DNA of 60,377 bases. Source: an uncultured Pseudomonadales bacterium (lineage in GTDB: Bacteria; Patescibacteriota; Microgenomatia; UBA1400; PJMF01). The stretch is from assembly GCA_964570365.1 (NCBI GenBank), contig CAZMXT010000005.1, positions 1 to 60,377 on the forward strand, in the 5' to 3' direction. A program made the translations under genes and the position numbers. Shown one piece after another: positions 22,760 through 53,184 of this stretch. The notes under the pieces were generated by a model. That model was not told where the DNA came from, searched no databases, and worked only from the letters and a program-made list of their open reading frames with translations. Every line of letters begins with the position of its first letter. The first letter of the stretch is position 1.

Positions 22760-22781
22760 CTGTGAGCTCGCATTTAGTAGT

Positions 22782-36916: not shown

Positions 36917-37018
36917 GAACGCTCATTATTAGCCGTTCTCAACTGATTTGAAAAGATCCAATACGAGTATTTTTGTTCTGCGCTGGCTTTATTCAGTATT
37001 ATTGCCTAAAATCCTGCT

Positions 37019-38896
37019 ATGTTTCTTTTACGTAAAGTTTTTGCGCTCTTCATTTTTGCTCTCAGCTTTTGTTTTCTTTTTTCTCAGTCAGTACGCGCAG
37101 ATGAGAACTTTGATTTATCTCTAACTTCAACCTTCACGGTCCAGAACAATGGCGTCACGACTGTAGCTCAAAAATTTACTCTTACTAATAAGACTCCAAC
37201 TCTCTTTGCCAAACAGTATGCTCTAGAGTTTGGCTCGACTCGCCTGAGAAATGTGCGGGTTTCTGATGAAAATGGAACTGTCCCTGCCAATATTACTGCC
37301 ACTGATAGTAAAACCAGTGTTGGCATTACGTTTAATGACATTATTGTTGGAGAAGGGAAGAACCGCACTTTTACTGTCCAGTTTGAAAGTGATGACATTG
37401 CGCTGATCAGCGGAAATGTGCTTGAGGTGTATATTTCCAAAGTCTCTGATATTGATAAGTACACCGATTACCAAGCCATACTACGGGTCCCCTCCCAGTT
37501 TGGCCAACCTGCTCGCGTATCTCCAGCGAACTATGCCATTTCTCAGGAGGGTGGGGCGACAGTTCTCAACTTTAATAACTTAAGAGGTCAAAGCATTTCA
37601 GCATTATTTGGTCAAAAGCAGGTCTTTGACTATAACTTGCGGTATCACTTACAAAACACTACCGGGAACGTCGGAATTGCTCAGGTAGCTTTGCCTCCAG
37701 ATACTAAAAGGCAAAAAGTAGAGTACTTAACTCTTGATCCACGACCACGCGAAATGAGTACTGATGCTGATGGAAACTGGATTGCAACCTACGAGATTGC
37801 GGCTGAAAAGGATCTGACTGTCAATCTGACTGGGAAGGTATCTATTTTTCTTGAGGACCAAGCCGATATATTCATCCCAGCCGCCACAAATGAGCATCTG
37901 AAGCCTCAGAAACACTGGGAAAGTAATAACTCAAAAATTCAAGAACTAGCCAGTACCCACCAAGGTCCTCGAGCTGTTTATGATTACGTGGTTGGACAAT
38001 TAAAGTATAACTATGAAAAAGCAAATGGGGCAGTCGAGAGACTCGGCGCATTGGGCGCACTGGACGATCCTGAAAACTCTGCTTGTCAAGAATTTACTGA
38101 TCTTTTCATTGCTGTAGCCCGAGCTCAAGGCATCCCCGCTCGGCGAGCCACTGGCTTTGCTTATACTGAGAACAGTCGGCTACGACCTCTTGGACTAGTG
38201 GAAGACGTATTGCACTCATGGCCGGAGTATTACGATCGTGAAAACCAGGCTTGGATTCCGATCGATCCCACCTGGGGAAATACCACAGGAGGAATTAATT
38301 ATTTTGACCAGTTTGACTTTAATCACATTGTTTTTGCTACGAATGGCGTCTCTTCGCAGCTTCCATACCCTGCGGGGACATATAAAAAAGCTGCGGAATC
38401 AACGAAAGATGTAGAGATTAGCTTTGGCAAAAGTATCGGAGAATCTCCGCTCGCAGTCACGATGAAAGTAAAACGCCAACCTTTCTGGTCAGCTCCCTTC
38501 CAAAATACGTATTTTCTGGTCGTTACAAATGAAGGAGGGCGCGCTTGGTATAATGTACCTCTTACTTTAAGTGATCCTGCCAGTCTGGGGAGTATTACCT
38601 ATCCAACTAAGATTGATTATCTCTTGCCATTTCAAACCCGAGAGATTCCCTTTGCAGTAGGTGGTAGTTCGAGGTGGCAAAAACAACGCCTTACCTTGAC
38701 AGCATCTCTAGGCAGCTTATTATCTTCTCATGAGCTCACAACCGGTTTCCAAACCATCGAAGTCCTCCGCTCTGCACCCCTCAATCCAGTTGCCTTGGGC
38801 ACAGGTATGGTCATCTTTGCCCTTACTGCCGGGAGTCTATTGGTTTTTAGACGACCAAGACAACGTCCTGTACGTCGGCAAGGCCAAAAACCTTAA
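37019..38896 (+). CDS. secreted, C-terminally anchored transglutaminase-like cysteine protease domain protein
   Basis: Signal-like N-terminus. The transglutaminase core has an intact Cys-His-Asp pattern (ACQEFTDLFIAVARAQGIPARRATGF; HSWPEYY; IPIDPTWG). A C-terminal TM helix is followed by an Arg-rich tail. TAAAAT lies 6 nt upstream of the ATG. Confidence 0.8.
   Translation: MFLLRKVFALFIFALSFCFLFSQSVRADENFDLSLTSTFTVQNNGVTTVAQKFTLTNKTPTLFAKQYALEFGSTRLRNVRVSDENGTVPANITATDSKTSVGITFNDIIVGEGKNRTFTVQFESDDIALISGNVLEVYISKVSDIDKYTDYQAILRVPSQFGQPARVSPANYAISQEGGATVLNFNNLRGQSISALFGQKQVFDYNLRYHLQNTTGNVGIAQVALPPDTKRQKVEYLTLDPRPREMSTDADGNWIATYEIAAEKDLTVNLTGKVSIFLEDQADIFIPAATNEHLKPQKHWESNNSKIQELASTHQGPRAVYDYVVGQLKYNYEKANGAVERLGALGALDDPENSACQEFTDLFIAVARAQGIPARRATGFAYTENSRLRPLGLVEDVLHSWPEYYDRENQAWIPIDPTWGNTTGGINYFDQFDFNHIVFATNGVSSQLPYPAGTYKKAAESTKDVEISFGKSIGESPLAVTMKVKRQPFWSAPFQNTYFLVVTNEGGRAWYNVPLTLSDPASLGSITYPTKIDYLLPFQTREIPFAVGGSSRWQKQRLTLTASLGSLLSSHELTTGFQTIEVLRSAPLNPVALGTGMVIFALTAGSLLVFRRPRQRPVRRQGQKP
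38718..38723 (+). promoter_or_regulatory. -10-like element (TATTAT), 6 nt upstream of the uvrC ATG and embedded in the upstream coding region
   Basis: TATTAT at 38718-38723, a CTTCTC spacer, ATG at 38730. This is the same geometry as the other operon-first genes in the window. Confidence 0.4.
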
Positions 38897-40124
38897 GAAC
38901 CGAATTGCTTCTTATAAACAGTGGAATTCTACCTTTGGCAAAACTCGCCGGATGGTTTTTCAAGCGAAAGTGCTCAAACATGAAGTTCTAGAGAGCGAGT
39001 TGGAAGCATTGTTGGTCGAGGCTGAGCTGATCCGAACTCATCAGCCTCCTTTTAATATTCTCCTCAAAGATGATAAAAGTGATTTATACGTCAACATTAC
39101 TGATGAAAAATTTCCTCGGGTCATAACTATCCGCAAAAAAGAAGCTGAGAAGCTGCGCGTGCAGGGAACCACCTTAGGTCCTTTTCCGAGTGCCTATACG
39201 CTCAAAGAAGTGTTGGGAATTGCGCGACGAATTTTCCCCTTTTGCACCGGACCCCGCACTCCTAACTATGGCACTTCCGCCAACTCTCCTTGCTTCCACT
39301 ACCATCTGGACCAATGTCCTGGGGCGTGTATTGGACTCATCTCAGTGGAGCGATACCGAGAAACCATCTCAGAGCTAGTCCTGTTTCTGAAAGGCAAGAA
39401 ACGAAGCGTGGTCAAGCAAATTGAAGCAGAGATGACCAGCGTCTCAGAAAAGGAAGAGTTCGAGTATGCTGCCAAACTCCGAGACCGAGTTGAGTCAATC
39501 AGGTCTGTAACCGAAAAAAAAGTTCGTCTCAAACCTGATCTCCAAATGCCACGCTTAAAAGAATCTATTCGGGCTGAAGGTATCATTCAGCTCCGCCGAA
39601 TTCTCTGCAAACACATGCAGTTACCGAAAACCTACCCACTGACCCGCATCGAAGGCTACGACGTGAGTAACATTCAAGGTACCAATGCAACCGTCGCTCA
39701 AGTCACCTTTATTAATGGCTCACCAGCCAAGGAACACTATCGGCTCTACAACATTCGGACAGTACAGACCCCTAATGACTACGCCATGCTCCAAGAAGCA
39801 ATTGTGAGGCGCCAGAACCACCTAGAGTGGGGCATTCCTAACCTGCTGGTTATTGATGGGGGGAAGGGACAGCTACGAGCTGCACTGAAAGTCTGGAATT
39901 GGAGCGTTCCAGTAATTTCGTTGGCCAAAAAACCAGATCGCGTAATTATTCCTCTTTTAAAAGTGGAGAAGGACAAAGACCCCCTCGTTGGTCTAGAGTA
40001 TCAGGAAATAAGCTTGCCCGAACAACATCCTGCACTGACACTCTTACAACAAATTCGCGATGAGTCCCATCGTTTCTCGAAAAAACAACATACACGCTTG
40101 CGAACTAAAGCAATGATGGAATAA
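38730..40124 (+). CDS. uvrC: excinuclease ABC subunit C (short form, no C-terminal helix-hairpin-helix domain)
   Basis: GIY-YIG (PGVYWFLDDQDNVLYVGKAKNLKNR), a Cys cluster (CFHYHLDQCPGAC), a UVR domain (FEYAAKLRDRVESI), and the endonuclease domain (EGYDVSNIQG, IDGGKGQL, IRDESHRF). The protein ends shortly after this last motif. A TTG at 38790 is an alternative start. Confidence 0.85.
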   Translation: MSSQPVSKPSKSSALHPSIQLPWAQVWSSLPLLPGVYWFLDDQDNVLYVGKAKNLKNRIASYKQWNSTFGKTRRMVFQAKVLKHEVLESELEALLVEAELIRTHQPPFNILLKDDKSDLYVNITDEKFPRVITIRKKEAEKLRVQGTTLGPFPSAYTLKEVLGIARRIFPFCTGPRTPNYGTSANSPCFHYHLDQCPGACIGLISVERYRETISELVLFLKGKKRSVVKQIEAEMTSVSEKEEFEYAAKLRDRVESIRSVTEKKVRLKPDLQMPRLKESIRAEGIIQLRRILCKHMQLPKTYPLTRIEGYDVSNIQGTNATVAQVTFINGSPAKEHYRLYNIRTVQTPNDYAMLQEAIVRRQNHLEWGIPNLLVIDGGKGQLRAALKVWNWSVPVISLAKKPDRVIIPLLKVEKDKDPLVGLEYQEISLPEQHPALTLLQQIRDESHRFSKKQHTRLRTKAMME

Positions 40125-40131
40125 TGATGAG

Positions 40132-40494
40132 ATGGGAATTATTAAGTCCTTTATAATCACTGGCATTGCTATCTTTGTTCTGGCCCGGTTACTGCCTTCA
40201 GTCAGTTATCTGAACTTGACTACGTTGATTGTGGCAAGTATTGTCCTGACTCTCTTGCAGAAAATTGTCCGCCCAATTCTCAAAGTACTATTACTGCCAA
40301 TCAACATTATCACTTTGGGTCTTTTTTCCTGGATCATTAATGTGATCATTCTCTGGCTGCTGATTGCTCTTGTACCAGGCTTCCACATTGACCCAGTTAA
40401 TTTTTTGGGACTCCAGTTAGGACCCTTTATGAGCTTAGTTTTTGTTTCTCTTGTCCTAGGCTTCATTCAGTCTGCTGTAGATATTGTTATCTAG
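40132..40494 (+). CDS. DUF360 / phage-holin-4_2-like small membrane protein
   Basis: 120 aa with four predicted TM helices. The N-terminus MGIIKSFIITGIAIFVLARLLPSV is typical of the YvlD/DUF360 family. Confidence 0.6.
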   Translation: MGIIKSFIITGIAIFVLARLLPSVSYLNLTTLIVASIVLTLLQKIVRPILKVLLLPINIITLGLFSWIINVIILWLLIALVPGFHIDPVNFLGLQLGPFMSLVFVSLVLGFIQSAVDIVI

Positions 40495-40525
40495 GATCAC
40501 TTCACCGTCTTTGCGTAGACCGAGG

Positions 40526-40531
40526 TATAAT
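40526..40531 (+). promoter_or_regulatory. -10 element (TATAAT), 6 nt upstream of the ATG of the 7TM gene
   Basis: CCGAGG-TATAAT-ATAGTT-ATG (ATG at 40538). No Shine-Dalgarno sequence. Confidence 0.5.
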
Positions 40532-40537
40532 ATAGTT

Positions 40538-41518
40538 ATGAAAAAACTGGTGATTAGCAGCATTTTTTTACTCATCTTCGGCCTTGGTTTGAGCCACACT
40601 TTGTCAATCCAAGCTCAAACCCCCCGCAGGTCTCCTCTGGTCGCTACAGACACTGCTTCCTTGATCGCCTCACCTTCTGCTGATGCTTCGCAGAGCGCTA
40701 CCGCTACCGAGACTGCTGGACTAGCCACGCCTTCTGCTGAGACTCAACAAAGAATTCAGGAACGCACTGATAAAGACATTACTGAAACTACCGGTAAAAG
40801 CCGAGATAAGCTCGTTCAAATTCTCGATGAGAACCCAATCGGTTCCTTTTCTTGGTATAACTTTCTACAGCATGGTATACGTCGAGCGATTGAGCGCGGT
40901 CTACCCGCTAATATCGTGGTCTTAATCCTGCTTTTTCCAGTTATTACCTCAGTCATTTCTTTTTCTCGGCATATCATTGGCTTGAAAGGCTTTGGTGTCT
41001 ATACCCCTGCAGTCTTGTCTGTCGCCTTTGTCTCGACTGGGATTATTAACGGCCTGGCACTCTTTCTGATTATCTTGATCTCAGCCATTGTCACTAAGGC
41101 CGCTATTAAACATCTCAACCTTCAGTATCTACCACGCACTGCCTTGCTTCTCTGGGGAGTTTCGATCTTTGTCCTGGCTATCTTGATTGGAATGGCGTTG
41201 CTCCCTCCAAATATTTTGCCTTCTTTCAGTCTTTTAACAATTAATATTTTTCCACTATTAATTATCATGTTGTTGACTGAGAACTTTATGGAATCTCAGT
41301 TATCTGGAAGTCAGTCAGAGGCGCAGCAATTAACCTTAGAAACCTTAATTATTGCAACCTTGTGCTCGCTGATTATTGGCTCAGCTATTTTCCAACGATA
41401 CGTTATCTTGCAACCTGAGTTAACGCTGATCGCAGTAGCGATTTTAAACATTGCCGTAGGTCGCTATTCCGGCTTACGGTTTATGGAGTGGTTGCGCTTC
41501 CGGTCAGTGATCGAGTAA
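40538..41518 (+). CDS. 7TM membrane protein of the '7TM usually fused to inactive transglutaminase' type
   Basis: Signal peptide, then an Ala/Ser/Thr-rich extracytoplasmic linker, then seven hydrophobic helices. FSRHIIGLKGFGVYTPAVLSVAF and the C-terminal VGRYSGLRFMEWLRF match my recollection of the 7TM_transglut family signature. Confidence 0.6.
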   Translation: MKKLVISSIFLLIFGLGLSHTLSIQAQTPRRSPLVATDTASLIASPSADASQSATATETAGLATPSAETQQRIQERTDKDITETTGKSRDKLVQILDENPIGSFSWYNFLQHGIRRAIERGLPANIVVLILLFPVITSVISFSRHIIGLKGFGVYTPAVLSVAFVSTGIINGLALFLIILISAIVTKAAIKHLNLQYLPRTALLLWGVSIFVLAILIGMALLPPNILPSFSLLTINIFPLLIIMLLTENFMESQLSGSQSEAQQLTLETLIIATLCSLIIGSAIFQRYVILQPELTLIAVAILNIAVGRYSGLRFMEWLRFRSVIE

Positions 41519-41525
41519 ATCACCT

Positions 41526-42812
41526 ATGCCAAAAGCTAGAGATATTTTGGGCATGAATGCTCGCAACCAGTTATATACCTCGCTGAACTCAACCTCAGCC
41601 AAGCGTTTTGGTACCTCCAAGTACGCCACTAAAGTCCTCCTCGAAAATAAACATATTCCCACTGCGAAAGTATTTGGTATTTTTGGCACGCTGGAAGACG
41701 TCAATGATTTTCCTTGGACTGACATGGAAAAGGACTTTGTGGTCAAGCCATCGAATGGCAATGCAGGCAAGGGTATCTTGATTTTCCGCCGTCAGGAGCC
41801 AGATAAGAATCATTGGTTAGATGCGATTGGACGACGAGTCAGTTTGGACGAGATTAAGCTGCATTGCGCTGATATTTTAGATGGGCAGTACAGCACCTAC
41901 GGCTCACTACCCAACGTCATTGTCGAGGAACGGGTCCCAATTCACACCAAGTTTCTCAAGTATGCCCACAAAGGCACACCAGATGTACGGGTGATTGTTT
42001 ATAACCACGTACCGGTGATGGCGATGCTTCGCTTACCCACCCCTCAATCTGAAGGACGAGCCAATTTACATCAAGGAGCAATTGCGGTGGGAATTGATAT
42101 GTTCTCAGGAGTTACTACTTTTGCAATTACTGGTAACGGCAAAACCATCACTACCTTGCCAGAGAGCAAACGGAAACTGAATGGTCTGAAAATTCCTCAC
42201 TGGAAACAGGCCTTAATTATTGCCATTCAGGCGGCTGACGCTGCTGGACTAGTCTTCTGCGGCGTAGATCTTTTTATCCACGAAGAAAAAGGCCCACTCA
42301 TAGTAGAACTCAATGCCAACCCTGGCTTATCTATTCAGTTAGCGAATCAGTCTGGACTACGTCGACGGCTGGAGCGCGTTACTGATTTGAATGTGCTGAA
42401 TCCTGAGCATGGAGTCAAAATTGGTCAAGCTTTATTTGCTGAGACTTTTTCCGACAAGATCAAAGCTGAAGATGGATTACTCATTATTTCTCCTTTTGAA
42501 GAGATCACCTTGTATGGAGAAAATAAACAAAAAAGTACTGATCTGGCACTAATCAATACTGGTCGCTTTCGGAGTGCAATTTCCAGTGACTTAGCGAAAA
42601 AGATTGGCCTGATTGAGCTGAACGATTTTCTGTGGTTCCAGCAAGAAAAAGAAGAAGGTAGAGTCCCGGTCGTGCAGGTTGCGTTTCGCCTACATGACCG
42701 CCGCTGTACCACAGCCATGATCGTAACCAAAAAATTAAATAAAACCAAACATCAAATTGAAATCGGCAGACATGATCTAACTGGCTTTTTGGTTGGAGAA
42801 GAAACAGCATGA
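41526..42812 (+). CDS. alpha-L-glutamate ligase-like ATP-grasp fused to a C-terminal retropepsin-like (RimB/'ATP-dependent zinc protease') domain
   Basis: ATP-grasp motifs: VVKPSNGNAGKGILIF, VIVEERV, DVRVIVYN, NLHQGAIAVGID, CGVDLFIHEEKGPLIVELNANPGLSI. The C-terminal ~115 aa (ISPFEEITLYGENKQKSTDLALINTGRFRSAISSDLAKKIGL...VAFRLHDRR) resembles the RimK-associated aspartic-protease-like domain. Confidence 0.7.
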   Translation: MPKARDILGMNARNQLYTSLNSTSAKRFGTSKYATKVLLENKHIPTAKVFGIFGTLEDVNDFPWTDMEKDFVVKPSNGNAGKGILIFRRQEPDKNHWLDAIGRRVSLDEIKLHCADILDGQYSTYGSLPNVIVEERVPIHTKFLKYAHKGTPDVRVIVYNHVPVMAMLRLPTPQSEGRANLHQGAIAVGIDMFSGVTTFAITGNGKTITTLPESKRKLNGLKIPHWKQALIIAIQAADAAGLVFCGVDLFIHEEKGPLIVELNANPGLSIQLANQSGLRRRLERVTDLNVLNPEHGVKIGQALFAETFSDKIKAEDGLLIISPFEEITLYGENKQKSTDLALINTGRFRSAISSDLAKKIGLIELNDFLWFQQEKEEGRVPVVQVAFRLHDRRCTTAMIVTKKLNKTKHQIEIGRHDLTGFLVGEETA

Positions 42813-43756
42813 GCGTCATCCAAAAACTCACTCCACTAAATCTCAATGACGAGAAGGAAAAGTTTTTTGCTGACTTCACCTATAATCCCCAATTTAGTTA
42901 TGCAGAAGTAGTTACTTCAGCTGAACTGATTCGTTGGGGCGCACCAAAGTCTAAGTTAATCGAATTTTCTCGAGCAGCACTACAGCAACGACCTAGTCTC
43001 AAAATTGTTCGTCACCCTGTAGAAAATAGTTTTATTACTGACCATTGCCGACAAGTCATTGCTGAAATTGGTATCACTGAAGAAATTGAAGTCGTTTTTG
43101 AGAAACAAAAAGTTACCCGCTGCAGTGTCAGTGGTCAAAAAATTTCCTTTAAAGACCCAGCTGAGTTTACAGATCTTCAAGAACTGGAAGGCACCCTAAA
43201 TCACGAACTGCAAACCCATCTTCTGCGAAATCTTAATCAGCAAAAACAAGACTGGAAACTAGATAGAGCTACGTATGATGCGCAGATTTTACGAACAGAG
43301 GAAGGCTTAGCCGTTTTGCACTCCTTACTCCCTTTAAAAGACCAAACTATTTGGCGACCATGTGCCTATTATTTAGCTGTTGCTTTAGCTCAGGAAAATG
43401 GTCTGGCAGACATGTTTGCAGAGCTGGTGCAGTTTGGCTTTGATCATCAGTTTGCGTGGAAGCTGTGCACTCGCACCAAGCGAGGCCAATCAGACACCTC
43501 TCAGCCTGGTGGAAACACCAAAGATTTATGTTACCTAGAAGGGGTAATTCAAATGTGTCGCTGGATTAAAGACCCCGAAAATGATCCTCGACAGCTCTAC
43601 TTCGGCAAGATCTTCATTGAAGAATTAGCGCAGCGATTGAGTACGGTAAAAACTAGCAATGTCTACTTACCTACATTCTTAGAAGATCTAGAATCGTACC
43701 GAAATATCGTGACAAAGATTGGCAACATTAACCACTTGGAGAACGCTTATGAATGA
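42809..43756 (+). CDS. DUF1704 / MATCAP-like zinc carboxypeptidase ('QEGLA motif' family)
   Basis: HExxH in LNHELQTHLLRN, followed by LRTEEGLAVLHSLL (the EEGLA/QEGLA signature). An ATGA start/stop overlap joins it to the upstream ATP-grasp gene. Confidence 0.7.
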   Translation: MSVIQKLTPLNLNDEKEKFFADFTYNPQFSYAEVVTSAELIRWGAPKSKLIEFSRAALQQRPSLKIVRHPVENSFITDHCRQVIAEIGITEEIEVVFEKQKVTRCSVSGQKISFKDPAEFTDLQELEGTLNHELQTHLLRNLNQQKQDWKLDRATYDAQILRTEEGLAVLHSLLPLKDQTIWRPCAYYLAVALAQENGLADMFAELVQFGFDHQFAWKLCTRTKRGQSDTSQPGGNTKDLCYLEGVIQMCRWIKDPENDPRQLYFGKIFIEELAQRLSTVKTSNVYLPTFLEDLESYRNIVTKIGNINHLENAYE

Positions 43757-44723
43757 TGCAAGTATTAGTTCAAAAATTATGATGGAAGAAGCCACCAAGC
43801 GAGGAATTGAGTGTCATATCTTTGATGATAAAAAAACAGTGCTGATGAAAAAAGATGGAGTGAGTTGGTTCACCCGCGGAGCAAGAACTTCACTTCAATC
43901 TTCAATTGGCAAAACTATCGCAGACAAAAAGCAGCTAACCAAAAAGATTCTGTTGTACTACAACTTACCAACTGCAAAGTATGTTCAGGTAAATAAAGTT
44001 GACCAGCTAGATACTGTTGCTGAGCTCAGTTTCCCAGTCGTAATGAAGCCATTGGATGGGAACGGTGGCAGAGGAGTAGTCGTCGGAATTCCAGATTTAG
44101 AATCAGCCAAACAAGCCTACCTAAAAAGTAACGAACCCATGTTGTTTGAAGAGTTACTCACTGGAACTGAGTACCGAATTACCTGTGTGAATTACCGATT
44201 TGTCGCTGCAACATATCGGAAAGCCGCCTTTGTGACTGGCGACGGGACTTCGACTGTCCAGCAATTAATCGATCAGAAAAACTCCCATCCATGGCGAGGT
44301 GAAGGACACGAATCATTTTTGACGAAAATCAAAGTCGATGAACTTGTAATAAGTTACATGCAAGAACAAGGCTTTACGATTGACAGTGTTCCATCAAAAG
44401 ATCTTGAAGTTCATCTCCGCAAAACAGTCAACCTTTCTACTGGCGGCGAGGCTTGGGACATGACAGATGAAGTCTGCGAAGAAAATAAACAACTCTTCAC
44501 TCAAATCGCCAAAGTTTGTGATCTCAACCTGATCGGCATTGATATGATGTGTGAGTCACTCAGTACACCAATAGTTAATCAACCTACTGCTGGCGTGGTA
44601 GAAGTGAATGCTGCCCCAGGACTTCGGATGCACCACTACCCAATTCAAGGGGAGCCACGCAATGTGGCATCAGCAGTACTAGATATGGTTGAAGCTCATT
44701 ACTTTCCAAAGCAAGTTGCTTAA
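43749..44723 (+). CDS. cyanophycin-synthetase G-domain-like ATP-grasp ligase, paralogue 1
   Basis: VVMKPLDGNGGRGVVVG, VTGDGTSTVQQLIDQKNSHPWRG, NLSTGGEAWDMTDEV, VVEVNAAPGLRMHHYP. It overlaps the upstream stop by 8 nt. Confidence 0.8.
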   Translation: MNDASISSKIMMEEATKRGIECHIFDDKKTVLMKKDGVSWFTRGARTSLQSSIGKTIADKKQLTKKILLYYNLPTAKYVQVNKVDQLDTVAELSFPVVMKPLDGNGGRGVVVGIPDLESAKQAYLKSNEPMLFEELLTGTEYRITCVNYRFVAATYRKAAFVTGDGTSTVQQLIDQKNSHPWRGEGHESFLTKIKVDELVISYMQEQGFTIDSVPSKDLEVHLRKTVNLSTGGEAWDMTDEVCEENKQLFTQIAKVCDLNLIGIDMMCESLSTPIVNQPTAGVVEVNAAPGLRMHHYPIQGEPRNVASAVLDMVEAHYFPKQVA

Positions 44724-44728
44724 TAATA

Positions 44729-45616
44729 ATGCTTTATCAACAATTTGAACTAACTGTTGCTCACTATCCCACACTAGACTCGGTAATAAAAGCTGAGCTA
44801 TCAAATGCTGATATTGTACAGATTGACCAGCATATTTTTGAGGGGATTTATCACTCAGATCAGCTGAACTGGAAAGGTGATCTGACTTTTTTTGAGAAGC
44901 CAGAAGATTTTGTACGTTCAGAAAAAGAACGTAAAAAACTCAGCCAATCTCGTGATTTTTTCTTAGCCCAAGGGTACACGTTGGAGGTAAAAGAAGTTGA
45001 TGAAGCTGCCAGCCAAGCCTTTGCTCAGCTTTATAACCGGACTACCTTGAAAAAAAATCGAGCTATTGATTATGATGCTGAGTTATTAGTGAAACGGAAT
45101 GTTCGCAGCGGCACTCCAGTCTATCTTTTTGGCTTATATAAAGGACCTGAGTTGCTTTCTGGATTACTCGTCACAAAAGTGAAAGAGGATATGCGAGTCA
45201 TGTTTGGCGCTAAACTCAAATTTGATGAAGTTCGTGGTGGTATTGGAGGAGTTTTAGAAATGGAGCTACTGCGTTTTTGTTTTGAGCGCGGACTGAAAAG
45301 AATTAGTCACGGTATCTCCACCAATCCAGCAGGGTTTGTGGACAATGCTGGAATTTTTGAGTTTAAGAGCAGATATGGCTTCACCGCATTTCCGTATGGG
45401 GAGTGGCGCACTACTTTTGTCTTAAATCCCAAAGTTGCAATCAGCGACCTGGTCTTTCTCACTATTGTTGATAACGGGCTCTGCTATCAGGTACTCAGTT
45501 TGGAGCCTAAAAGTGATATAGCAAAGTATCGGACCCGCTTAGTCACAAATGTCCAACAACAAACTTTAGCTCACCATATCGAGCACTCACGAAGCTTCTT
45601 TCGACTACCATCATGA
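44729..45616 (+). CDS. Fem/GNAT-fold-like protein, copy 1
   Basis: FAQLYNRTTLKKNRAIDYD and GGIGGVLEMELLRFCFERGLKRISHG...GIFEFKSRYGF resemble FemAB/Acetyltransf_6-type proteins. It is clearly paralogous to the next gene. The assignment is tentative. Confidence 0.45.
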   Translation: MLYQQFELTVAHYPTLDSVIKAELSNADIVQIDQHIFEGIYHSDQLNWKGDLTFFEKPEDFVRSEKERKKLSQSRDFFLAQGYTLEVKEVDEAASQAFAQLYNRTTLKKNRAIDYDAELLVKRNVRSGTPVYLFGLYKGPELLSGLLVTKVKEDMRVMFGAKLKFDEVRGGIGGVLEMELLRFCFERGLKRISHGISTNPAGFVDNAGIFEFKSRYGFTAFPYGEWRTTFVLNPKVAISDLVFLTIVDNGLCYQVLSLEPKSDIAKYRTRLVTNVQQQTLAHHIEHSRSFFRLPS

Positions 45617-46380
45617 ACTTAGACTTACAACAGTGGCAACTTCGTCGTCCAGAGAAAATTCGCTGGCTCTACAACAGATCTGCACCAAATCTTTATGCCG
45701 CAATTAAAAGTCCTTCACTCAGGGCATTTCTACGACACACAGATGAGTACTTAGCTGCATATGAAATTACCTATGATGAGAAAGAGCTTACACAAGCTTC
45801 GTATAAAAATTGGTTAAAACACTATGCGAAAGTAATGATCGAAAAAAATTACGATGTGATTGCAAAACCTGAGTGGCTCAGCAAGAAGTGGGCGGAAGGA
45901 AAGGAAGTGAGGGGCTACTTCTATTACTATCAGGGAGAGTTACAGGGCTCACTTATCTATGCTAAAAAGGGGAATGAGCGAGTATATGCAGCTTACAAAA
46001 CCAGCCTCAAGATTCCAGAAATAAGCACCAAAAAACATGGCTCATTAGGAGCAATGATTGACCTTATCTTTCTAAGGGAGATGCTAGATCAACAGTTTCC
46101 CTGGATCTCTCACGGAAGTATGAGAAATGCTTTTGGGGTACTTAATACCTATGGAAATTTACGCTATAAACTAGATATGGGCTTTCAAGTTATTGCGGAA
46201 GCAGATACACCCTGGCTAAATTCGGTCCCACTTTCTCAAGAAAAAACTGTAGCTTTTTTTGGAGGCTCCCAGGAAAGTGATTCCCTAACTCTTTACGGTT
46301 ATTCTAAATCAGGAACTGGGCAACCAAACTGGGGAAGTGATACAATGGAAGTTACGCTCTTAGAGCAACCCAATGAGTGA
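45613..46380 (+). CDS. Fem/GNAT-fold-like protein, copy 2
   Basis: WLKHYAKVMIEKNYDVI and GSLGAMIDLIFLREMLDQQFPWISHG...GNLRYKLDMGF parallel copy 1. ATGA overlap with the upstream gene. Confidence 0.4.
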   Translation: MNLDLQQWQLRRPEKIRWLYNRSAPNLYAAIKSPSLRAFLRHTDEYLAAYEITYDEKELTQASYKNWLKHYAKVMIEKNYDVIAKPEWLSKKWAEGKEVRGYFYYYQGELQGSLIYAKKGNERVYAAYKTSLKIPEISTKKHGSLGAMIDLIFLREMLDQQFPWISHGSMRNAFGVLNTYGNLRYKLDMGFQVIAEADTPWLNSVPLSQEKTVAFFGGSQESDSLTLYGYSKSGTGQPNWGSDTMEVTLLEQPNE

Positions 46381-47575
46381 CGCTGATCCCTTTTATAGAC
46401 CTTCCGAAGAAATACTCCACAGCTATGCGGAGGTATTGGTGAAGTTTGCTTTAAACTCTGGAAAAGGCGTCCAGCCTGGGGAGGTAGTAGAGTGCATTTT
46501 TCCGGAAGTTGCTCAACCCCTGGCGCGAGAAGTTCACCGAATAATTCTGGAAGTTGGCGCTCATCCAATGATGCAGATGCAGTCACAATATTTTGAACAT
46601 GACTTCTATCAACTTAGTTCAGCAAAACAACTTGAATTTTTTCCTAAAGATTATTTGAAAGCAAAAGCTCAACTTATCTCACACGTTATTTACCTGATAG
46701 ATCCAGCCCATCGAGAACTACCCGCTGAAGTTCAGAATAATCTTTTAACCTTCCGTAAAAATAACCACCCCTACAAAGAATGGCTTTCAGTCAAAGAACT
46801 GGAAGAAAAATTTTCTTGGACAGTTGGAATTTGGGGAACAGAGGAAGCAGCTGAGCAGGCGCACATCTCATTGCAAAAGTACTGGGAAGAACTGATCATT
46901 GGGTGTTGCTTAGATACACCAGATCCGGTTGGAGTCTGGAGAGAAACTTTTCAGCAGCTTCACCAAACCTGTAAAGCTTTAGACGACCTAAAAATTGAGA
47001 GGTTGCATTTTTCTGGTGCGGACGTCAATCTAGTAGTCGAGTTAGGGAGTCACCGTCGATGGCTTGGTGGACGAGGCCGAAATATTCCTAGTTACGAAGT
47101 TTTTACTTCACCTGACTGGCGAAGTACTTCTGGCTGGGTACGTTCTAACCAAGATTTATATTATTACGGAGCAACGATCAAAGGCGCTGAATTTTACTTT
47201 ACAGATGGAGTCGTACAAGAAGCTTCCGCTGAAGTTGGGGGACATACTTTAGAAGTTCTGATTCAGAATCCTGGGATGAATAAGATTGGAGAGATTTCCA
47301 TGACAGATAAAAGAATTTCTCGCGTCCAACATGCTCTGGGGGTTACGCTATTTGATGAAAATATTGGAGGAGATTTTGGCAACTTTCACTTTGCATTAGG
47401 GAAAAGCTTTCCAGCCGCATACACAGGAAAATCTTTAGATGAACTGAGTGAGCTAGGCTTCAACCAAAGCGCACTCCACATGGATTTTGTCTCCACTTCT
47501 GATCGCGTCGTGACAGCCACATTACGAGATCAAACCAAAAAAATTATTTATCAGAATGGGATGTTTACTGTATGA
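46373..47575 (+). CDS. M29 (AmpS/PepS-type) aminopeptidase
   Basis: The N-terminus (LHSYAEVLVKFALNSGKGVQPGEVV) and the C-terminal GEISMTD...LFDENIGGDFGNFHFALG are typical of thermophilic-metalloprotease M29 aminopeptidases. Confidence 0.8.
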   Translation: MSDADPFYRPSEEILHSYAEVLVKFALNSGKGVQPGEVVECIFPEVAQPLAREVHRIILEVGAHPMMQMQSQYFEHDFYQLSSAKQLEFFPKDYLKAKAQLISHVIYLIDPAHRELPAEVQNNLLTFRKNNHPYKEWLSVKELEEKFSWTVGIWGTEEAAEQAHISLQKYWEELIIGCCLDTPDPVGVWRETFQQLHQTCKALDDLKIERLHFSGADVNLVVELGSHRRWLGGRGRNIPSYEVFTSPDWRSTSGWVRSNQDLYYYGATIKGAEFYFTDGVVQEASAEVGGHTLEVLIQNPGMNKIGEISMTDKRISRVQHALGVTLFDENIGGDFGNFHFALGKSFPAAYTGKSLDELSELGFNQSALHMDFVSTSDRVVTATLRDQTKKIIYQNGMFTV

Positions 47576-48675
47576 CAAATACTGATGCTTTGGACCTTCA
47601 CTACACAAAATTGAGCCCAAGGGGTGAAGTTGAAGGTTCATATATTACTCCCAGCACTCAACTTATTTTAAAGGCAGCTGAAGCATTGGGAGTCCGGTGG
47701 CGAGAGATTCCTGGAACGAGAATTTTTGAGTTGCAGTACAACGGTACGAACAAACTTTTTCGCTACCAGATATCGATTAACACAACAGATATAGGCTTCT
47801 ATACTTGCTTAGATAAAAGCGTCACTAATACTATATTAAAAGCAAATGAGATCTCGGTTCCCAATGGTTTTCACCTAGAAAAAACTGACACTGAAGAGTA
47901 CTGGCTAGAAGCGTTTCATAGTCTTACTAAGCCAACTGTGATTAAGCCAACTCATGGGAATAAAGGAATTGGCATCAGTGTTGGCGTCACAGAAGAGGCA
48001 GATTTTTTAGAGCGTGTTCGGGCAGCTTTTGCACTTTTTGAAAACGATTCGGAAGCAGGCGTAATCATAGAAGAACAATGCCAAGGGGAAGAGTTTCGCG
48101 TCATCGCTACTAAAGGAAAAGTGCTCGGAGTGCTTCAAAGAATTCCTGCGAATGTTGTAGGCGACGGAATTCATACAATTCAAGAATTGATTGCTGAAAA
48201 AAATACTCATCCATATCGAAATATTTTCGAGTCAAAGTTGTACCCTAAAATTAAAGCAGATGCCTTAACAGAAGAAATGCTACGTGAGCAGGGACTGAGT
48301 TTAATGAGCATTCTTGAGAAGAATTATCAAGTATTTCTACGGAAAGTTTCCAACATTTCGCAAGGTGGAGACTCAGTTGACTTGACTTCGCAAATTCACC
48401 CTACATTCGCTGAAGTGGCCAATAAAGTAGCAAATAGTCTTCCTGGTATTGACTTCATGGGTATTGATATTATGACCGCAGACATTCGCCAATCTGTTGA
48501 GCGATCTCCCTATCATGTGATAGAAGTAAATTCCTCACCAGGCTTTGATATCCACGAATTTCCAATGACTGGCAAACGGCAATTTATTGCGTTAGAATTT
48601 GTGCTACTAGCCTTTCCTGAGCTTCGACCGCGCTTAGCTACTATGACTACTGAACAACTAGAAAATCTCTATTAA
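47572..48675 (+). CDS. cyanophycin-synthetase G-domain-like ATP-grasp ligase, paralogue 2
   Basis: VIKPTHGNKGIGISVG, VVGDGIHTIQELIAEKNTHPYRN, NISQGGDSVDLTSQI, VIEVNSSPGFDIHEFP. ATGA overlap with the M29 gene. Confidence 0.8.
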   Translation: MTNTDALDLHYTKLSPRGEVEGSYITPSTQLILKAAEALGVRWREIPGTRIFELQYNGTNKLFRYQISINTTDIGFYTCLDKSVTNTILKANEISVPNGFHLEKTDTEEYWLEAFHSLTKPTVIKPTHGNKGIGISVGVTEEADFLERVRAAFALFENDSEAGVIIEEQCQGEEFRVIATKGKVLGVLQRIPANVVGDGIHTIQELIAEKNTHPYRNIFESKLYPKIKADALTEEMLREQGLSLMSILEKNYQVFLRKVSNISQGGDSVDLTSQIHPTFAEVANKVANSLPGIDFMGIDIMTADIRQSVERSPYHVIEVNSSPGFDIHEFPMTGKRQFIALEFVLLAFPELRPRLATMTTEQLENLY

Positions 48676-48699
48676 ATAAGTACCCTAAAAAAAATATCT

Positions 48700-49764
48700 G
48701 TGCAAAGAAAATACTACACACGTCAAACCGTTCGCGGGCCTCAATCAGATGAAGTTATGGGTGGAAGTGCCATCCTGACTTTACATGAAGCAGAGAAGTA
48801 CGGGATGACCACCGAAGAGATCCCAGATACCAAAATTTTTAAGATTACCTACAAAGATCAAGCTCAGTATTTTCGCGCCCAAAACCCTGCACAGACAACT
48901 GGCATTGCGTTTCAAGCATCAACCGATAAAAACATGGGGAGAAGCTTGCTAAAAAGAGCCGGCATCTCCATTTCTGAAGGATTCACGATTAAGAAAAGCG
49001 ATCCCGTGGAGTATTGGCTAGAAGTCTTTGCTGCTTTACAGAAGCCACTCGTAGTCAAACCTACGAATGGCACCCAAGGGCAGTCTGTTTTTATGAACGT
49101 GGCGGAAGAAGGTGCGTTTCGCACCGCGGTCAGAGTCTGTCTTCAGCATACGCTCCACATTTCAGCAGGAGCTGTCGTGGAAGAGATGTTTCAAGGCCAA
49201 GAATATCGTATCCTAGCGTCAGCAGCGAAAATTATTGGCGTCATTAATAGACGCCCAGCAAATGTGGTCGGAGATGGAACTTCAACCATCACCCAACTTA
49301 TTGAACAAAAAAACAGTGATCCTCGCCGTGGTGATGACCCCAACGACGTTTTAGTAAAAATTAAAGTTGATAATCACGTCACTTCACATATTGAAAGTCA
49401 AGGTTTGACACTGGAGTCTATCCCAGAAAAAGATCTGCGGGTCTTTTTGCGGCTCAACTCCAATATCTCAACAGGAGGAGACAGCCTGGATGTTACCGAT
49501 CAAGTTCATCCGACTGTAATTGAAGTTGCGCAGCGAGCAATGGCAGCTTTTCCAGGGCTAGCATTTGCCGGCATCGACTTCATGACCAAAGATATCACTG
49601 CGCCCCAAACCCCCGACTCATATGTGATCGTAGAAGTGAATGACTCACCTGGCTACTCAATTCATGATCAACCATACGAAGGCAAGAACAGACATGGCGC
49701 CTATGAGTTTTTATGCGTAATCTTTCCACAGCTGAGAAATGATTTCCCCCAACCATTGGAGTAG
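48700..49764 (+). CDS. cyanophycin-synthetase G-domain-like ATP-grasp ligase, paralogue 3
   Basis: VVKPTNGTQGQSVFMN, VVGDGTSTITQLIEQKNSDPRRG, NISTGGDSLDVTDQV, IVEVNDSPGYSIHDQP. The GTG start is inferred from colinearity with paralogue 2, so the start is uncertain. Confidence 0.78.
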   Translation: MQRKYYTRQTVRGPQSDEVMGGSAILTLHEAEKYGMTTEEIPDTKIFKITYKDQAQYFRAQNPAQTTGIAFQASTDKNMGRSLLKRAGISISEGFTIKKSDPVEYWLEVFAALQKPLVVKPTNGTQGQSVFMNVAEEGAFRTAVRVCLQHTLHISAGAVVEEMFQGQEYRILASAAKIIGVINRRPANVVGDGTSTITQLIEQKNSDPRRGDDPNDVLVKIKVDNHVTSHIESQGLTLESIPEKDLRVFLRLNSNISTGGDSLDVTDQVHPTVIEVAQRAMAAFPGLAFAGIDFMTKDITAPQTPDSYVIVEVNDSPGYSIHDQPYEGKNRHGAYEFLCVIFPQLRNDFPQPLE

Positions 49765-49790
49765 TTTGTCCCTCAAGGTACAATACAAGA

Positions 49791-50954
49791 ATGTTACTTC
49801 AAGGTAAAAGGGTTTCCGTCTCAGGCAAGCGCGTCGCGCTTGGCATGTCTGGTGGAGTAGACTCTTCTGTTTCTGCGCATTTATTGGTAGAAGATGGCTA
49901 CGAAGTGACAGGCGTTTACCTCGAGTGTTGGCGAGCTCCAGGATGCCGGACTGAGGAAGATCGCAAGGATGCACTAGATATCTGCCTCCAACTTGGCATT
50001 CCTTTTACCGTGCTCGATTTTAAGCAAAAGTACAAAGAGACAGTCGTCGAGTATTTTTTTCGCGAGTACGAGCAAGGCAAAACTCCAAACCCCGATGTGC
50101 TGTGCAATAAAGAGATTAAGTTTGGACTCTTCTATGATTGGGCAATGGAGAATAATTTTGAGCATGTCGCTACCGGGCATTATGCCCAAGTTCTAGAGAG
50201 CAGAGAAGCACCTGGCCAAAAAGTCCTTCTTACCAGCCAGGACGAGCATAAAGATCAAACGTACTTCTTATATCGGTTACGCCGAGAACAACTTGAGCAT
50301 ATTTTATTTCCAATTGGACACTTAGAAAAAAGCCGGGTTCGCCAGATGGCGGTGGAGCGAAATCTAGCGGTGGCTTCAAAAAAGGATTCTGTCGGCATCT
50401 GCTTTATTGGAGACATTAACGTTCATAATTTCCTCAAAGAGCGACTGGGCGAAAAACCTGGTCCTGTCATAGATACCAAAGGAACGGTAATTGGGGAACA
50501 TAATGGCCTTTGGTTCTTTACCGTCGGTCAACGTCACGGATTCAGTATTTTCCCCAAGAGCATGGTCAAAAAGGCCGATGGGAGTGAGATCGATCGCCAG
50601 AATATTCCACCATTTTATGTGATTCGTAAAAATGCCTCGAAAAATGAGCTGGTGGTGGGGTTTGGGAAAGAAACGTTCCAGACTGAGTTTGATCTTAGCG
50701 ATATTCACTGGATCTATGAGGCACCAAAAGAGGGAGAAAGTGTACTGGTGCGGATTCGACATACTGGAAAACTGCTTGGGTGCCAGCGTAGTTCTGAAGG
50801 AGTGCCAAACGGCAAGACAGTTGTGAAGCTTATCGAGCCCACACAAGGTATTGCAGAAGGCCAATCCGCTGTTTTTTATCGAGAGTACTCTCACTCAGGG
50901 GCTATCCCACTGTACGAGTGCTTAGGTGGGGGAGTAATTGGTTTTGATTCTTAG
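49791..50954 (+). CDS. mnmA: tRNA 2-thiouridine(34) synthase
   Basis: PP-loop ALGMSGGVDSSVSA, CNKEIKFG, ATGHYA, KDQTYFL. TACAAT lies 6 nt upstream of the ATG. Confidence 0.92.
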   Translation: MLLQGKRVSVSGKRVALGMSGGVDSSVSAHLLVEDGYEVTGVYLECWRAPGCRTEEDRKDALDICLQLGIPFTVLDFKQKYKETVVEYFFREYEQGKTPNPDVLCNKEIKFGLFYDWAMENNFEHVATGHYAQVLESREAPGQKVLLTSQDEHKDQTYFLYRLRREQLEHILFPIGHLEKSRVRQMAVERNLAVASKKDSVGICFIGDINVHNFLKERLGEKPGPVIDTKGTVIGEHNGLWFFTVGQRHGFSIFPKSMVKKADGSEIDRQNIPPFYVIRKNASKNELVVGFGKETFQTEFDLSDIHWIYEAPKEGESVLVRIRHTGKLLGCQRSSEGVPNGKTVVKLIEPTQGIAEGQSAVFYREYSHSGAIPLYECLGGGVIGFDS

Positions 50955-50995
50955 AGTGAACTCCTTGTATCATCAGAAAACTGAGAGGGCAGTCT

Positions 50996-51704
<709 letters not shown>

Positions 51705-51739
51705 ATTTTTTTCAATAACTAAAACTAATATTCTCGAGT

Positions 51740-51809
51740 GTGGAGGTGACGAGAATCGAACTCCCGCTCCAAACTTCGCGGATTTAGAGCTGAGCACCAG
51801 CAGCACCCC
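51740..51809 (-). tRNA. non-canonical tRNA-like gene (possible tRNA-Arg GCG or tRNA pseudogene)
   Basis: The reverse complement is GGGGGTGCTGCTGGTGCTCAGCTCTAAATCCGCGAAGTTTGGAGCGGGAGTTCGATTCTCGTCACCTCCA. The acceptor stem pairs (GGGGGTG/CACCTCC with one G-U) and the T-loop is TTCGATT. However, the T-stem has a mismatch, the D-arm is short, the anticodon stem is over-long, and the 7-nt loop CCGCGAA has C at position 33. It is only 70 nt long. Confidence 0.45.
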
Positions 51810-51921
51810 CACACTACGTCAAGGGTACGTCATAGTCATTACAAAGAGAGTACATTTCGAATCACCTCCTCCTCTTGCTAAATCCCATAATTATTCATAT
51901 AATTTCTATTGCTTAATAGTA

Positions 51922-53184
51922 ATGAAGGTATCAATTATGATAAAACTGCGCAGTACCTTGCTTTCATCAGCTTTCTTCCTCTTTCTGCTTTCTTTAACTG
52001 TAAGTCACGTCACATCTGACTTAACTTTAGTCCCTCAGGCTCACGCCCAATCCAGCTCCACCTGCCAGTCTCAACAGCCAGTAAACACGCAGTTCCGCTT
52101 TAGCGGCAATGGCCCTTGGGTCAGTGGTAACGACCTGACTAATCAGCGTCCAACCGTGGGTCAGCAGATTGATGTTAATTGTTTTGCCAAGAATGGCACT
52201 GCTCTTTTAGAAGGTGGTTATATTGATGTCATTTTTAATGGTGGTACATATCGAGTGTCCAATACCGCTGAACTGCGCAATGCAACGCTCCAAAATCCAG
52301 GCTCATATCACTTTACCTGTCGCTCTGCGAGTATTACTTCCTGCGAGGATAGTGACGCAATTACTGTCTACTCTGCCGTCACTTTGCCAACTCCAACCCC
52401 TCGGCCAACTCCTACGCCAATCCCAACCCCGTTGCCAACTCCGCAGCCAACAGTGATTTCTACGCCAACACCCACCCCAACACCCCAAAACCCTCACTAC
52501 AGTACTTGCGACAGTCTCCAGGTCATCAGTGGCAACGACAGCTTAGTCCCCGCTAAAGTGACCTTCCGCGCTCGCGGCTCAGATAATAAGGGCGGCATTC
52601 AACGTTACCGCTACTACTTTGGTGACGGCGAGCAGCAAGATACTGACCAAGCTGAAGTAACTCATGAGTACAAGAGCTCTGGAACTTTTATTGCTCGTGC
52701 TGATATTAAAGATAGCCAAGGTAACTACAAAACCAGCTCAGCGTGTGAAGCTACCGTCCGGGTCAAGCCATCGAGTATTGAGTCGTTCCGGTCCGCCTGT
52801 TCCGACATTTTTATTTCCGCTGACAACAATGGCAAAGCCCCTTCAACCGTCAAGTATGATGTGACTGGATTTGACAACAAGGGCAGTATTCAGGGCTATC
52901 GAATGGATTTCGGCAATGGGGTGGTCAAAGACGGAGCCGGTCGAAGTTTTGAGCAGCGCTACGATACCTCTGGTACCTATGAAGTGCGTGCCTATATCAA
53001 GAACAGTAACGGTGAGTATGTAGGTGGAACTGACAGCTGCAAACGCCTGGTAACAATTGGCTCTAGTGAGCCTCTGCGCAGCCAACCATCTACTGGAACT
53101 CCTACCTTGTTGCCGTTACTTGGTCTGGGAAGTGGAGTAGTGGGTTCGGTGCTCCGCTTCATCAAAAAAGACCGCCTGGTGTAG
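51922..53184 (+). CDS. secreted surface protein with two PKD-like domains, a Pro/Thr linker and a C-terminal sortase-type sorting signal
   Basis: Signal peptide and a PTPTPRPTPTPIPTPLPTPQP linker. There are two homologous modules (RYRYYFGDGEQQD...HEYKSSGTFIARADIKDSQGN and GYRMDFGNGVVKD...QRYDTSGTYEVRAYIKNSNGE). The C-terminus is QPSTG, then a hydrophobic helix, then KKDR. An alternative ATG lies at 51937. Confidence 0.7.
   Translation: MKVSIMIKLRSTLLSSAFFLFLLSLTVSHVTSDLTLVPQAHAQSSSTCQSQQPVNTQFRFSGNGPWVSGNDLTNQRPTVGQQIDVNCFAKNGTALLEGGYIDVIFNGGTYRVSNTAELRNATLQNPGSYHFTCRSASITSCEDSDAITVYSAVTLPTPTPRPTPTPIPTPLPTPQPTVISTPTPTPTPQNPHYSTCDSLQVISGNDSLVPAKVTFRARGSDNKGGIQRYRYYFGDGEQQDTDQAEVTHEYKSSGTFIARADIKDSQGNYKTSSACEATVRVKPSSIESFRSACSDIFISADNNGKAPSTVKYDVTGFDNKGSIQGYRMDFGNGVVKDGAGRSFEQRYDTSGTYEVRAYIKNSNGEYVGGTDSCKRLVTIGSSEPLRSQPSTGTPTLLPLLGLGSGVVGSVLRFIKKDRLV

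Follow-up and report, generated by a model that had tools for sequence, protein, structure and literature searches.

The window, by which we mean the whole 60,377-nucleotide stretch analysed here, is one contig (C5) of a 1.06-Mb genome that is assembled in 28 contigs and is 97% complete; its closest named relatives are metagenome-assembled genomes (MAGs) labelled 'Patescibacteria group bacterium'. Between 40132 and 49791, the window carries a compact block of genes in which neighbours overlap by 4-8 nt or stand no more than 26 nt apart. In order, these genes encode a small four-transmembrane (4-TM) holin_4_2-like protein, a seven-transmembrane (7TM) protein, an RloC-like ATP-grasp ligase, a MATCAP/QEGLA-type protein, the ligase G1, two proteins that we call U1 and U2, an M29 aminopeptidase, the ligases G2 and G3, and finally MnmA. 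An earlier note on this DNA had described G1, G2 and G3 as three paralogous ligases resembling the ATP-grasp (G) domain of cyanophycin synthetase CphA1, taking the three genes in isolation and passing over the fourth ATP-grasp protein, the RloC-like ligase at 41526-42812. We find that G1-G3 belong, as accessory modules, to a conserved operon of the Rlo-like 7TM/ATP-grasp/peptidase type, and we propose that they may lengthen a short peptide at its C-terminus.

The three open reading frames (ORFs) lie where the earlier note had placed them, all on the + strand, and encode stand-alone proteins of 324 aa (G1, 43749-44723), 367 aa (G2, 47572-48675) and 354 aa (G3, 48700-49764). The assigned G1 start, an ATG at 43749, agrees with orthologues of 320-325 aa, and an alternative TTG lies upstream at 43719. 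In pairwise BLASTP comparisons, G2 and G3 are 43% identical (E 6e-96), G1 and G3 32% (E 1e-47) and G1 and G2 27% (E 7e-40), a similarity far beyond chance that identifies the three as true paralogues, with G3 as the tandem paralogue of G2. The three colinear motifs that had been reported as shared among them are present in all three when the proteins are aligned. Orthologues of G1 share 53-78% identity, and a scan of genome contigs with G1 found only one named relative, Patescibacteria bacterium BROCD046, at 78% identity.

Against the cyanophycin synthetase model TIGR02068 (cut-off 850 bits), G1, G2 and G3 score 311, 260 and 274 bits, respectively, and match only model positions ~150-474 (159-470 for G1, 154-473 for G2 and 152-474 for G3). 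They match the CphA1 structures 7lg5 and 7wac over the G domains with E values of 1e-47 to 1e-58, at 31-41% identity; G1, the most CphA1-like of the three, is 37-41% identical. In TeCphA1, the G domain comprises residues 162-487 (PMC9427784). Because the matches span the G-domain region of the model only, each protein corresponds to a G domain without the Mur-ligase-like M domain and also without the CphA N domain, an absence on which the earlier note was silent. Its claim that neither the three proteins nor the rest of the cluster contain an M domain is borne out by Pfam and NCBIfam profiles, which detected no Mur-ligase domain in any cluster protein. The architecture of CphA2 (N + G + truncated M, ~630 aa) is not matched either. 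A second set of partial matches is to the GshAB model NF002688 (198-212 bits against a cut-off of 425, model positions ~430-755 only), and a third is to the Ngg model TIGR03103 (143-154 bits against a cut-off of 569, ligase part only). There is no dedicated family for these proteins in Pfam or NCBIfam, and public annotations of their homologues range from 'hypothetical' through 'cyanophycin synthetase' to 'glutamate--cysteine ligase'.

To place the three ligases among their relatives, we computed two trees, a quick one from 73 rows and a careful one from 50 (IQ-TREE, LG+C20, with ultrafast bootstrap [UFBoot] and Shimodaira-Hasegawa-like approximate likelihood ratio [SH-aLRT] support), taking references for CphA, GshAB and Ngg from PDB alignments and annotated plasmid genes and leaving CphA2 out. 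In the careful tree, the CphA1 references are monophyletic (92/100) and all of G1-G3 fall outside them. The GshAB references form a clade (100/100) with one patescibacterial protein that we call a genuine GshAB (851 aa, L064, 683 bits against NF002688), and G2 and G3 lie outside this clade as well. The Ngg references are also monophyletic (100/100), with no supported grouping with G1-G3. G2 and G3 belong to a clade of Patescibacteria only (100/99), whose sister group is the GshAB ligase module (98/96), and G1 forms a clade with its orthologue (100/100) whose deep branching is without support. None of G1-G3 lies inside a clade of known function, the point that the earlier note had wished a phylogeny to settle. 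All three nonetheless belong to a wider ATP-grasp clade that unites the CphA G domain with the C-terminal modules of GshAB and Ngg, and the description of the set as CphA G-domain-like thus holds as a family resemblance but is too narrow for G2 and G3, given their placement beside the GshAB module. A very divergent stand-alone member of the same wider clade, a 441-aa hypothetical protein, is encoded on Legionella plasmids (L015 5650-6975) beside an ankyrin-repeat protein and a response regulator.

Active-site and specificity residues described for CphA1 (PMC9427784, TeCphA1 numbering) were mapped by aligning G1-G3 with four solved CphA1 G domains, and more widely in an alignment of 73 sequences; the roles of the catalytic residues are those given in PMC9427784 and PMC10273328. 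K261, R309, G398, D431, E450, N452 and G456 are kept in all three ligases. The ATP/Mg and acyl-phosphate residues K261, R309, D431, E450 and N452 are common to G1-G3 and the CphA1, GshAB and Ngg references, as is the N-x-S-x-G-G sequence of the Gomega large loop, and by these intact residues G1-G3 look catalytically competent. Positions 215, 267, 456 and 458 read T/G/G/R in G1, Y/K/G/D in G2 and Q/Q/G/S in G3, and E(D)/H/G/R in all six CphA1 references. In CphA1, E215 binds the arginine branch of the last cyanophycin unit, H267 belongs to the P-loop and R458 contacts the alpha-carboxylate of the incoming Asp (PMC9427784). R458 is retained in G1 alone of the three, and H267, absent from the window copies, is present in the G1 orthologue of one close relative (L013). 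R323 and N394, which in CphA1 contact the beta-carboxylate of Asp, were considered as a sign of an acidic substrate and rejected, because both are also kept in GshAB and Ngg.

These differences among the paralogues are maintained between strains. In the orthologues from four close relatives (L013, L074, L075 and L076), the G1 pattern T215/G456/R458 and the G3 pattern S458 are retained, and position 458 of the middle ligase varies among D, C and N. Overall, the paralogue-specific residues at 215, 267, 397 and 458 are conserved among orthologues, which argues for subfunctionalisation rather than redundancy and lends support to the earlier suggestion that three divergent copies reflect different substrates or steps. 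The distinct, orthologue-conserved pocket residues themselves point to different substrates.

One reading of the database matches would be that G1-G3 serve ordinary cyanophycin or glutathione metabolism and that other regions of the genome encode the missing parts. Their best hidden Markov model (HMM) and PDB matches are indeed CphA and GshAB, and some sources annotate homologues accordingly, but the scores are far under the respective cut-offs (260-311 versus 850 bits and 198-212 versus 425 bits) and the proteins lie outside both the CphA1 and the GshAB clades. A six-frame search of the genome with TIGR02068, a check named in the earlier note, returned G1-G3, weak matches to other ATP-grasp proteins and Mur-type matches on contig C1. 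The latter are MurE (336 bits, above cut-off, encoded beside a penicillin-binding protein) and a MurC-MurB fusion of 815 aa (L007 199-2646, - strand; 331 bits against TIGR01082, 200-248 bits for murB). Cyanophycinase (TIGR02069) was sought in the same genome, where the best match reached 19.8 bits against a cut-off of 126.6. For GshA, a genome search with the GshAB model found ligase halves only and nothing at model positions 1-428. With no CphA M domain, no cyanophycinase and no GshA in a 97%-complete genome, ordinary cyanophycin or glutathione synthesis is excluded, bar the missing 3%, and we consider this reading effectively refuted. The earlier expectation of a product other than cyanophycin is supported in turn, by the absence of the M and N domains, of E215 and of any cyanophycinase above cut-off.

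Two genes recovered in these searches deserve mention in their own right. The best cyanophycinase match is a PepE-like S51 peptidase (22749-23420, +; PF03575, E 3e-35) that lies directly after lexA and about 20 kb from the ligase operon; its PepE score of 61 bits is below cut-off, and it may be an Asp-X dipeptidase. A fifth short ATP-grasp protein of 245 aa is encoded on contig C2 (2499-3197; L006 1222-1959, - strand), with weak scores of 61 bits for the RimK family and 66 bits for the CphA G domain.

G1-G3 thus resemble two known enzymes in part. With the CphA1 G domain they share an ATP-grasp subfamily built of Gcore, Glid and Gomega, but their scores are about one-third of the family cut-off and the CphA partners listed above are missing. 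The C-terminal module of GshAB, also called GshF (3ln6 and 3ln7), extends a small peptide by one amino acid at its C-terminal carboxylate, and is the sister of the G2/G3 clade; unlike it, G2 and G3 have no GshA domain, either fused to them or elsewhere in the genome, and differ at positions 215, 267, 456 and 458.

The genes that precede G1 give the operon its Rlo-like character. The 7TM protein (40484-41518, +; 344 aa) matches PF14402 (7TM_transglut) over residues 145-342 with an E value of 1e-22, and aligns with the RloB model NF052267 over model positions 315-506 of 508 only, at 67.7 bits against a cut-off of 900. It corresponds to the C-terminal 7TM half of RloB, and Pfam and NCBIfam profiles found no N-terminal inactive-transglutaminase domain in it. 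The adjoining RloC-like protein (41526-42812, +) is a fourth ATP-grasp enzyme of the operon, of the RimK/RloC type; it matches PF14397 above that model's cut-off (E 3e-59) and TIGR02291 at 229.9 bits, below the cut-off of 314. Its C-terminal tail of ~130 aa (42420-42812) has no Pfam match on its own and aligns with a retropepsin-like domain of relatives. Where other Patescibacteria have KIDTGA and a PF05618 match, the window protein reads INTG and that of its closest relative, L013, reads MNTG, and the catalytic Asp appears to have been lost in this lineage.

This arrangement is reminiscent of RloABC of Pseudomonas aeruginosa (PMC11957051) and of RimK/RimB, in that a 7TM protein adjoins a RimK-related ATP-grasp ligase and a retropepsin-like element is present. 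It departs from RloABC in several respects. The window 7TM protein lacks the inactive-transglutaminase domain; RloA is a secreted, active retropepsin, whereas the retropepsin-like part in the window forms one cytoplasmic protein with the ligase and lacks the catalytic Asp; and Patescibacteria add one to three CphA/GshAB-like ligases and a MATCAP-like peptidase, none of which has been reported for Rlo. The Pseudomonas Rlo systems affect osmotic tolerance, antibiotic susceptibility and biofilm formation, envelope-related phenotypes known from genetics only, with no chemistry, and 96% of RloB matches are proteobacterial (PMC11957051). A literature search found no account of stand-alone G-domain ligases or of their Rlo-like linkage; it did not cover the 2009 amidoligase survey, which may hold related predictions.

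Upstream of the 7TM gene, the block opens with the small 4-TM membrane protein (40132-40494, +; Phage_holin_4_2/DUF360-like, PF04020, E 1e-20), which occupies the same position in all four close relatives. Just before the operon, in the window and in the same four relatives, lies a gene for a secreted or membrane-anchored transglutaminase-core protein whose Cys, His and Asp motifs read SACQEF, HSWPE and IDPTW. It could be a stand-in for the transglutaminase domain that is absent from the 7TM protein. The two ORFs concerned here are 37019-38896 (+) and 38730-40124 (+), the transglutaminase-core ORF overlapping the longest uvrC ORF by 167 nt. At the other end, after mnmA, a 184-aa ORF (51120-51674, +) looks like a fragment of an NAD-dependent epimerase/GDP-fucose synthase-type gene, and the close relatives have no gene at this spot.

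Between the RloC-like gene and G1 is the gene for a MATCAP/DUF1704/QEGLA-type zinc carboxypeptidase-like protein (42809-43756, +; PF08014, 66 bits against a cut-off of 27, E 4e-18). In an alignment with human MATCAP (7z5g, E 2e-33), its HELQTH falls over HEIGTH and its TEEGLA over TEEGLA. We take the HExxxH motif and the downstream Glu to be the metal ligands of MATCAP, and judged by this alignment the metal and catalytic motifs of the window protein are intact. In one relative, an 800-aa protein combines RloC-like, retropepsin and MATCAP domains in a single chain.

Three further genes follow G1. U1 (44729-45616, +) has no Pfam match above threshold (PF13480, E 0.047), and its 13 homologues among 5.8 billion sequences are all 52-59% identical to it. 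An AlphaFold2 model of U1 with a predicted local distance difference test (pLDDT) score of 84 shows a tandem-GNAT fold, and its top Foldseek matches in the PDB are FemX, aminoacyl-phosphatidylglycerol synthases and the aminoacyl-tRNA-dependent peptide synthase Sbb17 (E 1e-8 to 1e-6, probability 1.0, with modest template-modelling scores of 0.41-0.46). On the strength of this model, U1 is a probable Fem/MprF-like aminoacyl-tRNA-dependent transferase. U2 (45613-46380, +), which has no Pfam match, is distantly paralogous to U1 (BLASTP: 25% identity over 163 aa, E 8e-11) and accompanies it in L074, L075 and L076. The M29-family aminopeptidase (46373-47575, +) matches PF02073 over its full length (E 7e-78) and is found only in the window version of the operon, being absent from all four close relatives.

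The pairing of ligases with a MATCAP-type protein recalls the tubulin tyrosine ligase (TTL)/MATCAP cycle, in which an ATP-grasp ligase is likewise countered by a MATCAP-family metallocarboxypeptidase with HExxxH...E motifs, although the window ligases are not of the TTL family, stand in a bacterial context and have no known protein acceptor. By this analogy, the operon could write a 'tail code', with the four ATP-grasp ligases extending the C-terminus of a specific protein made by ribosomes, in the way that RimK modifies S6 and TTL modifies tubulin, and the MATCAP-like protein removing the additions. The intact MATCAP motifs, the RloC-retropepsin-MATCAP fusion, the RimK relationship of the RloC-like ligase and the fact that all characterised relatives of G1-G3 extend a C-terminal alpha-carboxylate would fit such tagging. 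Against this, the operon contains no candidate acceptor gene, and its intergenic gaps are too small for a precursor peptide; the substrates of GshAB and Ngg, to which G2 and G3 are closest among characterised enzymes, are small molecules; and the presence of an M29 aminopeptidase and of Fem-like transferases points to a small peptide whose amine is free. The most obvious acceptor, the C-terminal end of the 7TM protein itself (...VIE in the window), found no support among 40 homologous 7TM proteins, in which this end is not conserved, the last residue being K in 19 with no conserved acidic end, a result that does not amount to an exclusion. On this evidence, we regard tagging of a protein as unlikely, if still worth keeping in view.

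The operon recurs in a fixed place in related genomes. All four close relatives share the genomic slot, with genes for UvrA, the transglutaminase-like protein and UvrC on one side and for MnmA, a PKD protein and a sortase on the other, and all keep the core 7TM-RloC-MATCAP-G1. What follows G1 varies: G2 and G3 in L013; U1, U2 and one G-like ligase in L074 and L076; U1, U2 and two G-like ligases in L075; and U1, U2, M29, G2 and G3 in the window.

We also surveyed 401 sampled Patescibacteria genomes, including the window's own. A G-like gene is present in 98 and an RloC-like gene in 127, and the two occur together in 65 genomes against 31 expected (odds ratio 7.7; Fisher's P 3e-16, uncorrected for phylogeny). 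For the other 97 genomes with a G-like gene, we inspected the surroundings of the best G-like match: 40 have an RloC-like gene no further than ~10 kb away and 39 a 7TM gene too, most often arranged on a single strand as 7TM>RloC>G(>G). In 18 of the loci, a MATCAP-like protein has a separate gene. One G copy per locus is the most frequent number (66 loci), followed by two (27) and three (4).

Related modules also occur fused to one another. A phmmer search with G1 against 1.84 billion representative sequences returned 994 proteins at E <= 1e-30, in which stand-alone proteins of 322-335 aa rank nearest, followed by tandem proteins of two or three modules and then by full-length CphA1 proteins at 36-40% identity. 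Two of the natural proteins with several G modules also carry an acylphosphatase domain: the metagenomic P0146 and P0149 each have three tandem CphA/GshAB-like ATP-grasp modules followed by this domain, an odd partner for enzymes that use acyl-phosphate intermediates.

At two other patescibacterial loci, full-length CphA-like N+G+M proteins stand directly beside the RloC-like/7TM pair (L056 960-3635 and L065 8481-11039). Their scores of 772 and 722 bits fall short of the 850-bit cut-off, and three positions are non-canonical: 215 is R, 267 is F or V and 458 is D or N. These proteins bring up the possibility that the operon makes a poly(amino acid), which could be a mixed polymer or a backbone like that of cyanophycin but free of Arg branches, such as poly-Asp, and which would be stored or exported via the 7TM protein as surface material. 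Such a product would also be in keeping with the retention of R458 and G456 in G1 and of H267 in its L013 orthologue, and in CphA2 the G domain alone can polymerise. Its difficulties are the absence of both the N domain that tethers the polymer in CphA1 and the Arg-branch-binding E215, the grouping of G2 and G3 with the single-addition module of GshAB, the lack of a depolymerase such as cyanophycinase (the only related gene being the distant S51 peptidase), and the presence of three specificities and two exopeptidases, which fit a short defined product better. We consider a polymer a doubtful explanation for the window operon.

A further alternative is that the ligases run in parallel, each making its own dipeptide-type compatible solute in the manner of Ngg, which forms N-acetylglutaminylglutamine amide (NAGGN). 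The Ngg ligase module belongs to the same wider clade, makes a small non-ribosomal peptide and, in Azospirillum, shares its locus with a dedicated peptidase (M42, beside ngg); many genes of the G2/G3 clade are solitary; and the Rlo system is genetically tied to osmotic tolerance (PMC11957051). However, the trees provide no supported grouping of G1-G3 with Ngg, the operon has neither the fused GNAT N-acetyltransferase of Ngg nor the AsnO-type amidotransferase with which Ngg works, and the two- and three-module fusions and the fixed gene order suggest cooperation among the ligases. Parallel dipeptide synthesis therefore seems to us improbable.

The reading that we prefer, and to which we assign a probability of about 0.5, is that G1-G3 lengthen a short peptide step by step at its C-terminus, independently of the ribosome, as three differentiated ligases acting with their operon partners. 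With ATP, each ligase would phosphorylate the C-terminal alpha-carboxylate of a small peptide or of an N-blocked amino acid, giving an acyl-phosphate that one specific amino acid would then attack through its amino group. The three would represent successive or alternative steps of one ribosome-independent pathway, which would also employ the RloC-like (RimK-type) ligase and, in this strain, the two Fem-like transferases, probably with aminoacyl-tRNA as donor. The product, which would be neither cyanophycin nor glutathione, would be trimmed at its C-terminus by the MATCAP-like carboxypeptidase and at its N-terminus by the M29 aminopeptidase, and would be handled at the membrane by the RloB-like 7TM protein.

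Several lines of evidence favour this stepwise extension. GshAB adds Gly to gamma-Glu-Cys, and Ngg links N-acetyl-Gln with Gln. In the case of CphA1 and CphA2, the acceptor is the C-terminus of cyanophycin (PMC9427784, PMC10273328). As the characterised members of the clade all activate a C-terminal alpha-carboxylate and add one amine, G1-G3 would by analogy each add one amino acid. Cooperation among the ligases is suggested by their fixed gene order and by the multi-module fusions, and the modular gain and loss of genes between strains points to a product of varying composition. The missing tethering domain, the affinity of G2 and G3 to GshAB and the combination of an amino- with a carboxypeptidase favour a short, free-ended peptide over a long polymer, and the adjoining 7TM protein speaks for the membrane as the place of the product's synthesis or use.

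Set against stepwise extension are a number of observations. In 57 of the 97 surveyed loci, the G-like gene has no adjoining RloC-like gene, which indicates that these ligases can work outside such a system. The N+G+M proteins beside RloC/7TM pairs make a polymer product in the wider family conceivable. Scans of 36800-52000 for promoters and terminators found nothing exceeding shuffled expectation, and the limits of the operon are accordingly not marked by any such pattern above chance. The substrate specificity of G1-G3 is not readable from their sequences, and no product, substrate or acceptor is on record for any member, including Pseudomonas RloABC (PMC11957051). We infer the type of reaction, the order of steps, and the nature, size and destination of the product; that the reactions are sequential rather than three in parallel, we infer from the fusions and gene order only.

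A bolder form of the same proposal, which we put forward tentatively and think unlikely as it stands, treats the operon as a modular, template-independent assembly line. In it, interchangeable free-standing ATP-grasp modules (G1, a variable middle slot and G3), the RimK-type ligase and the tRNA-dependent Fem-like transferases would write a defined hetero-oligopeptide, either free or on the C-terminus of a membrane-associated acceptor, and the MATCAP-type carboxypeptidase and the aminopeptidase would edit it. If true, there would be, next to ribosomes and non-ribosomal peptide synthetases (NRPS), a third way of making defined peptides; the operon would also be a forerunner, in prokaryotes, of the tubulin ligase/MATCAP cycle and would disclose the product of Rlo systems.

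Taken together, these data add G1-G3 to a known enzyme clade as new members, encoded in an operon variant that is both new and recurrent. The ligase module of cyanophycin and glutathione synthesis also exists free-standing, duplicated and even fused in tandem, and the automatic labels 'cyanophycin synthetase' and 'glutamate--cysteine ligase' are wrong for these proteins. MATCAP-type carboxypeptidases are linked to ATP-grasp ligases in bacteria as well. For the widespread RloBC-type 7TM/ATP-grasp systems, to which no product has so far been assigned, the operon offers compact soluble enzymes that can be assayed singly, and its one to three extra ligases and its exopeptidases for both chain ends narrow the likely chemistry to a short peptide built step by step.

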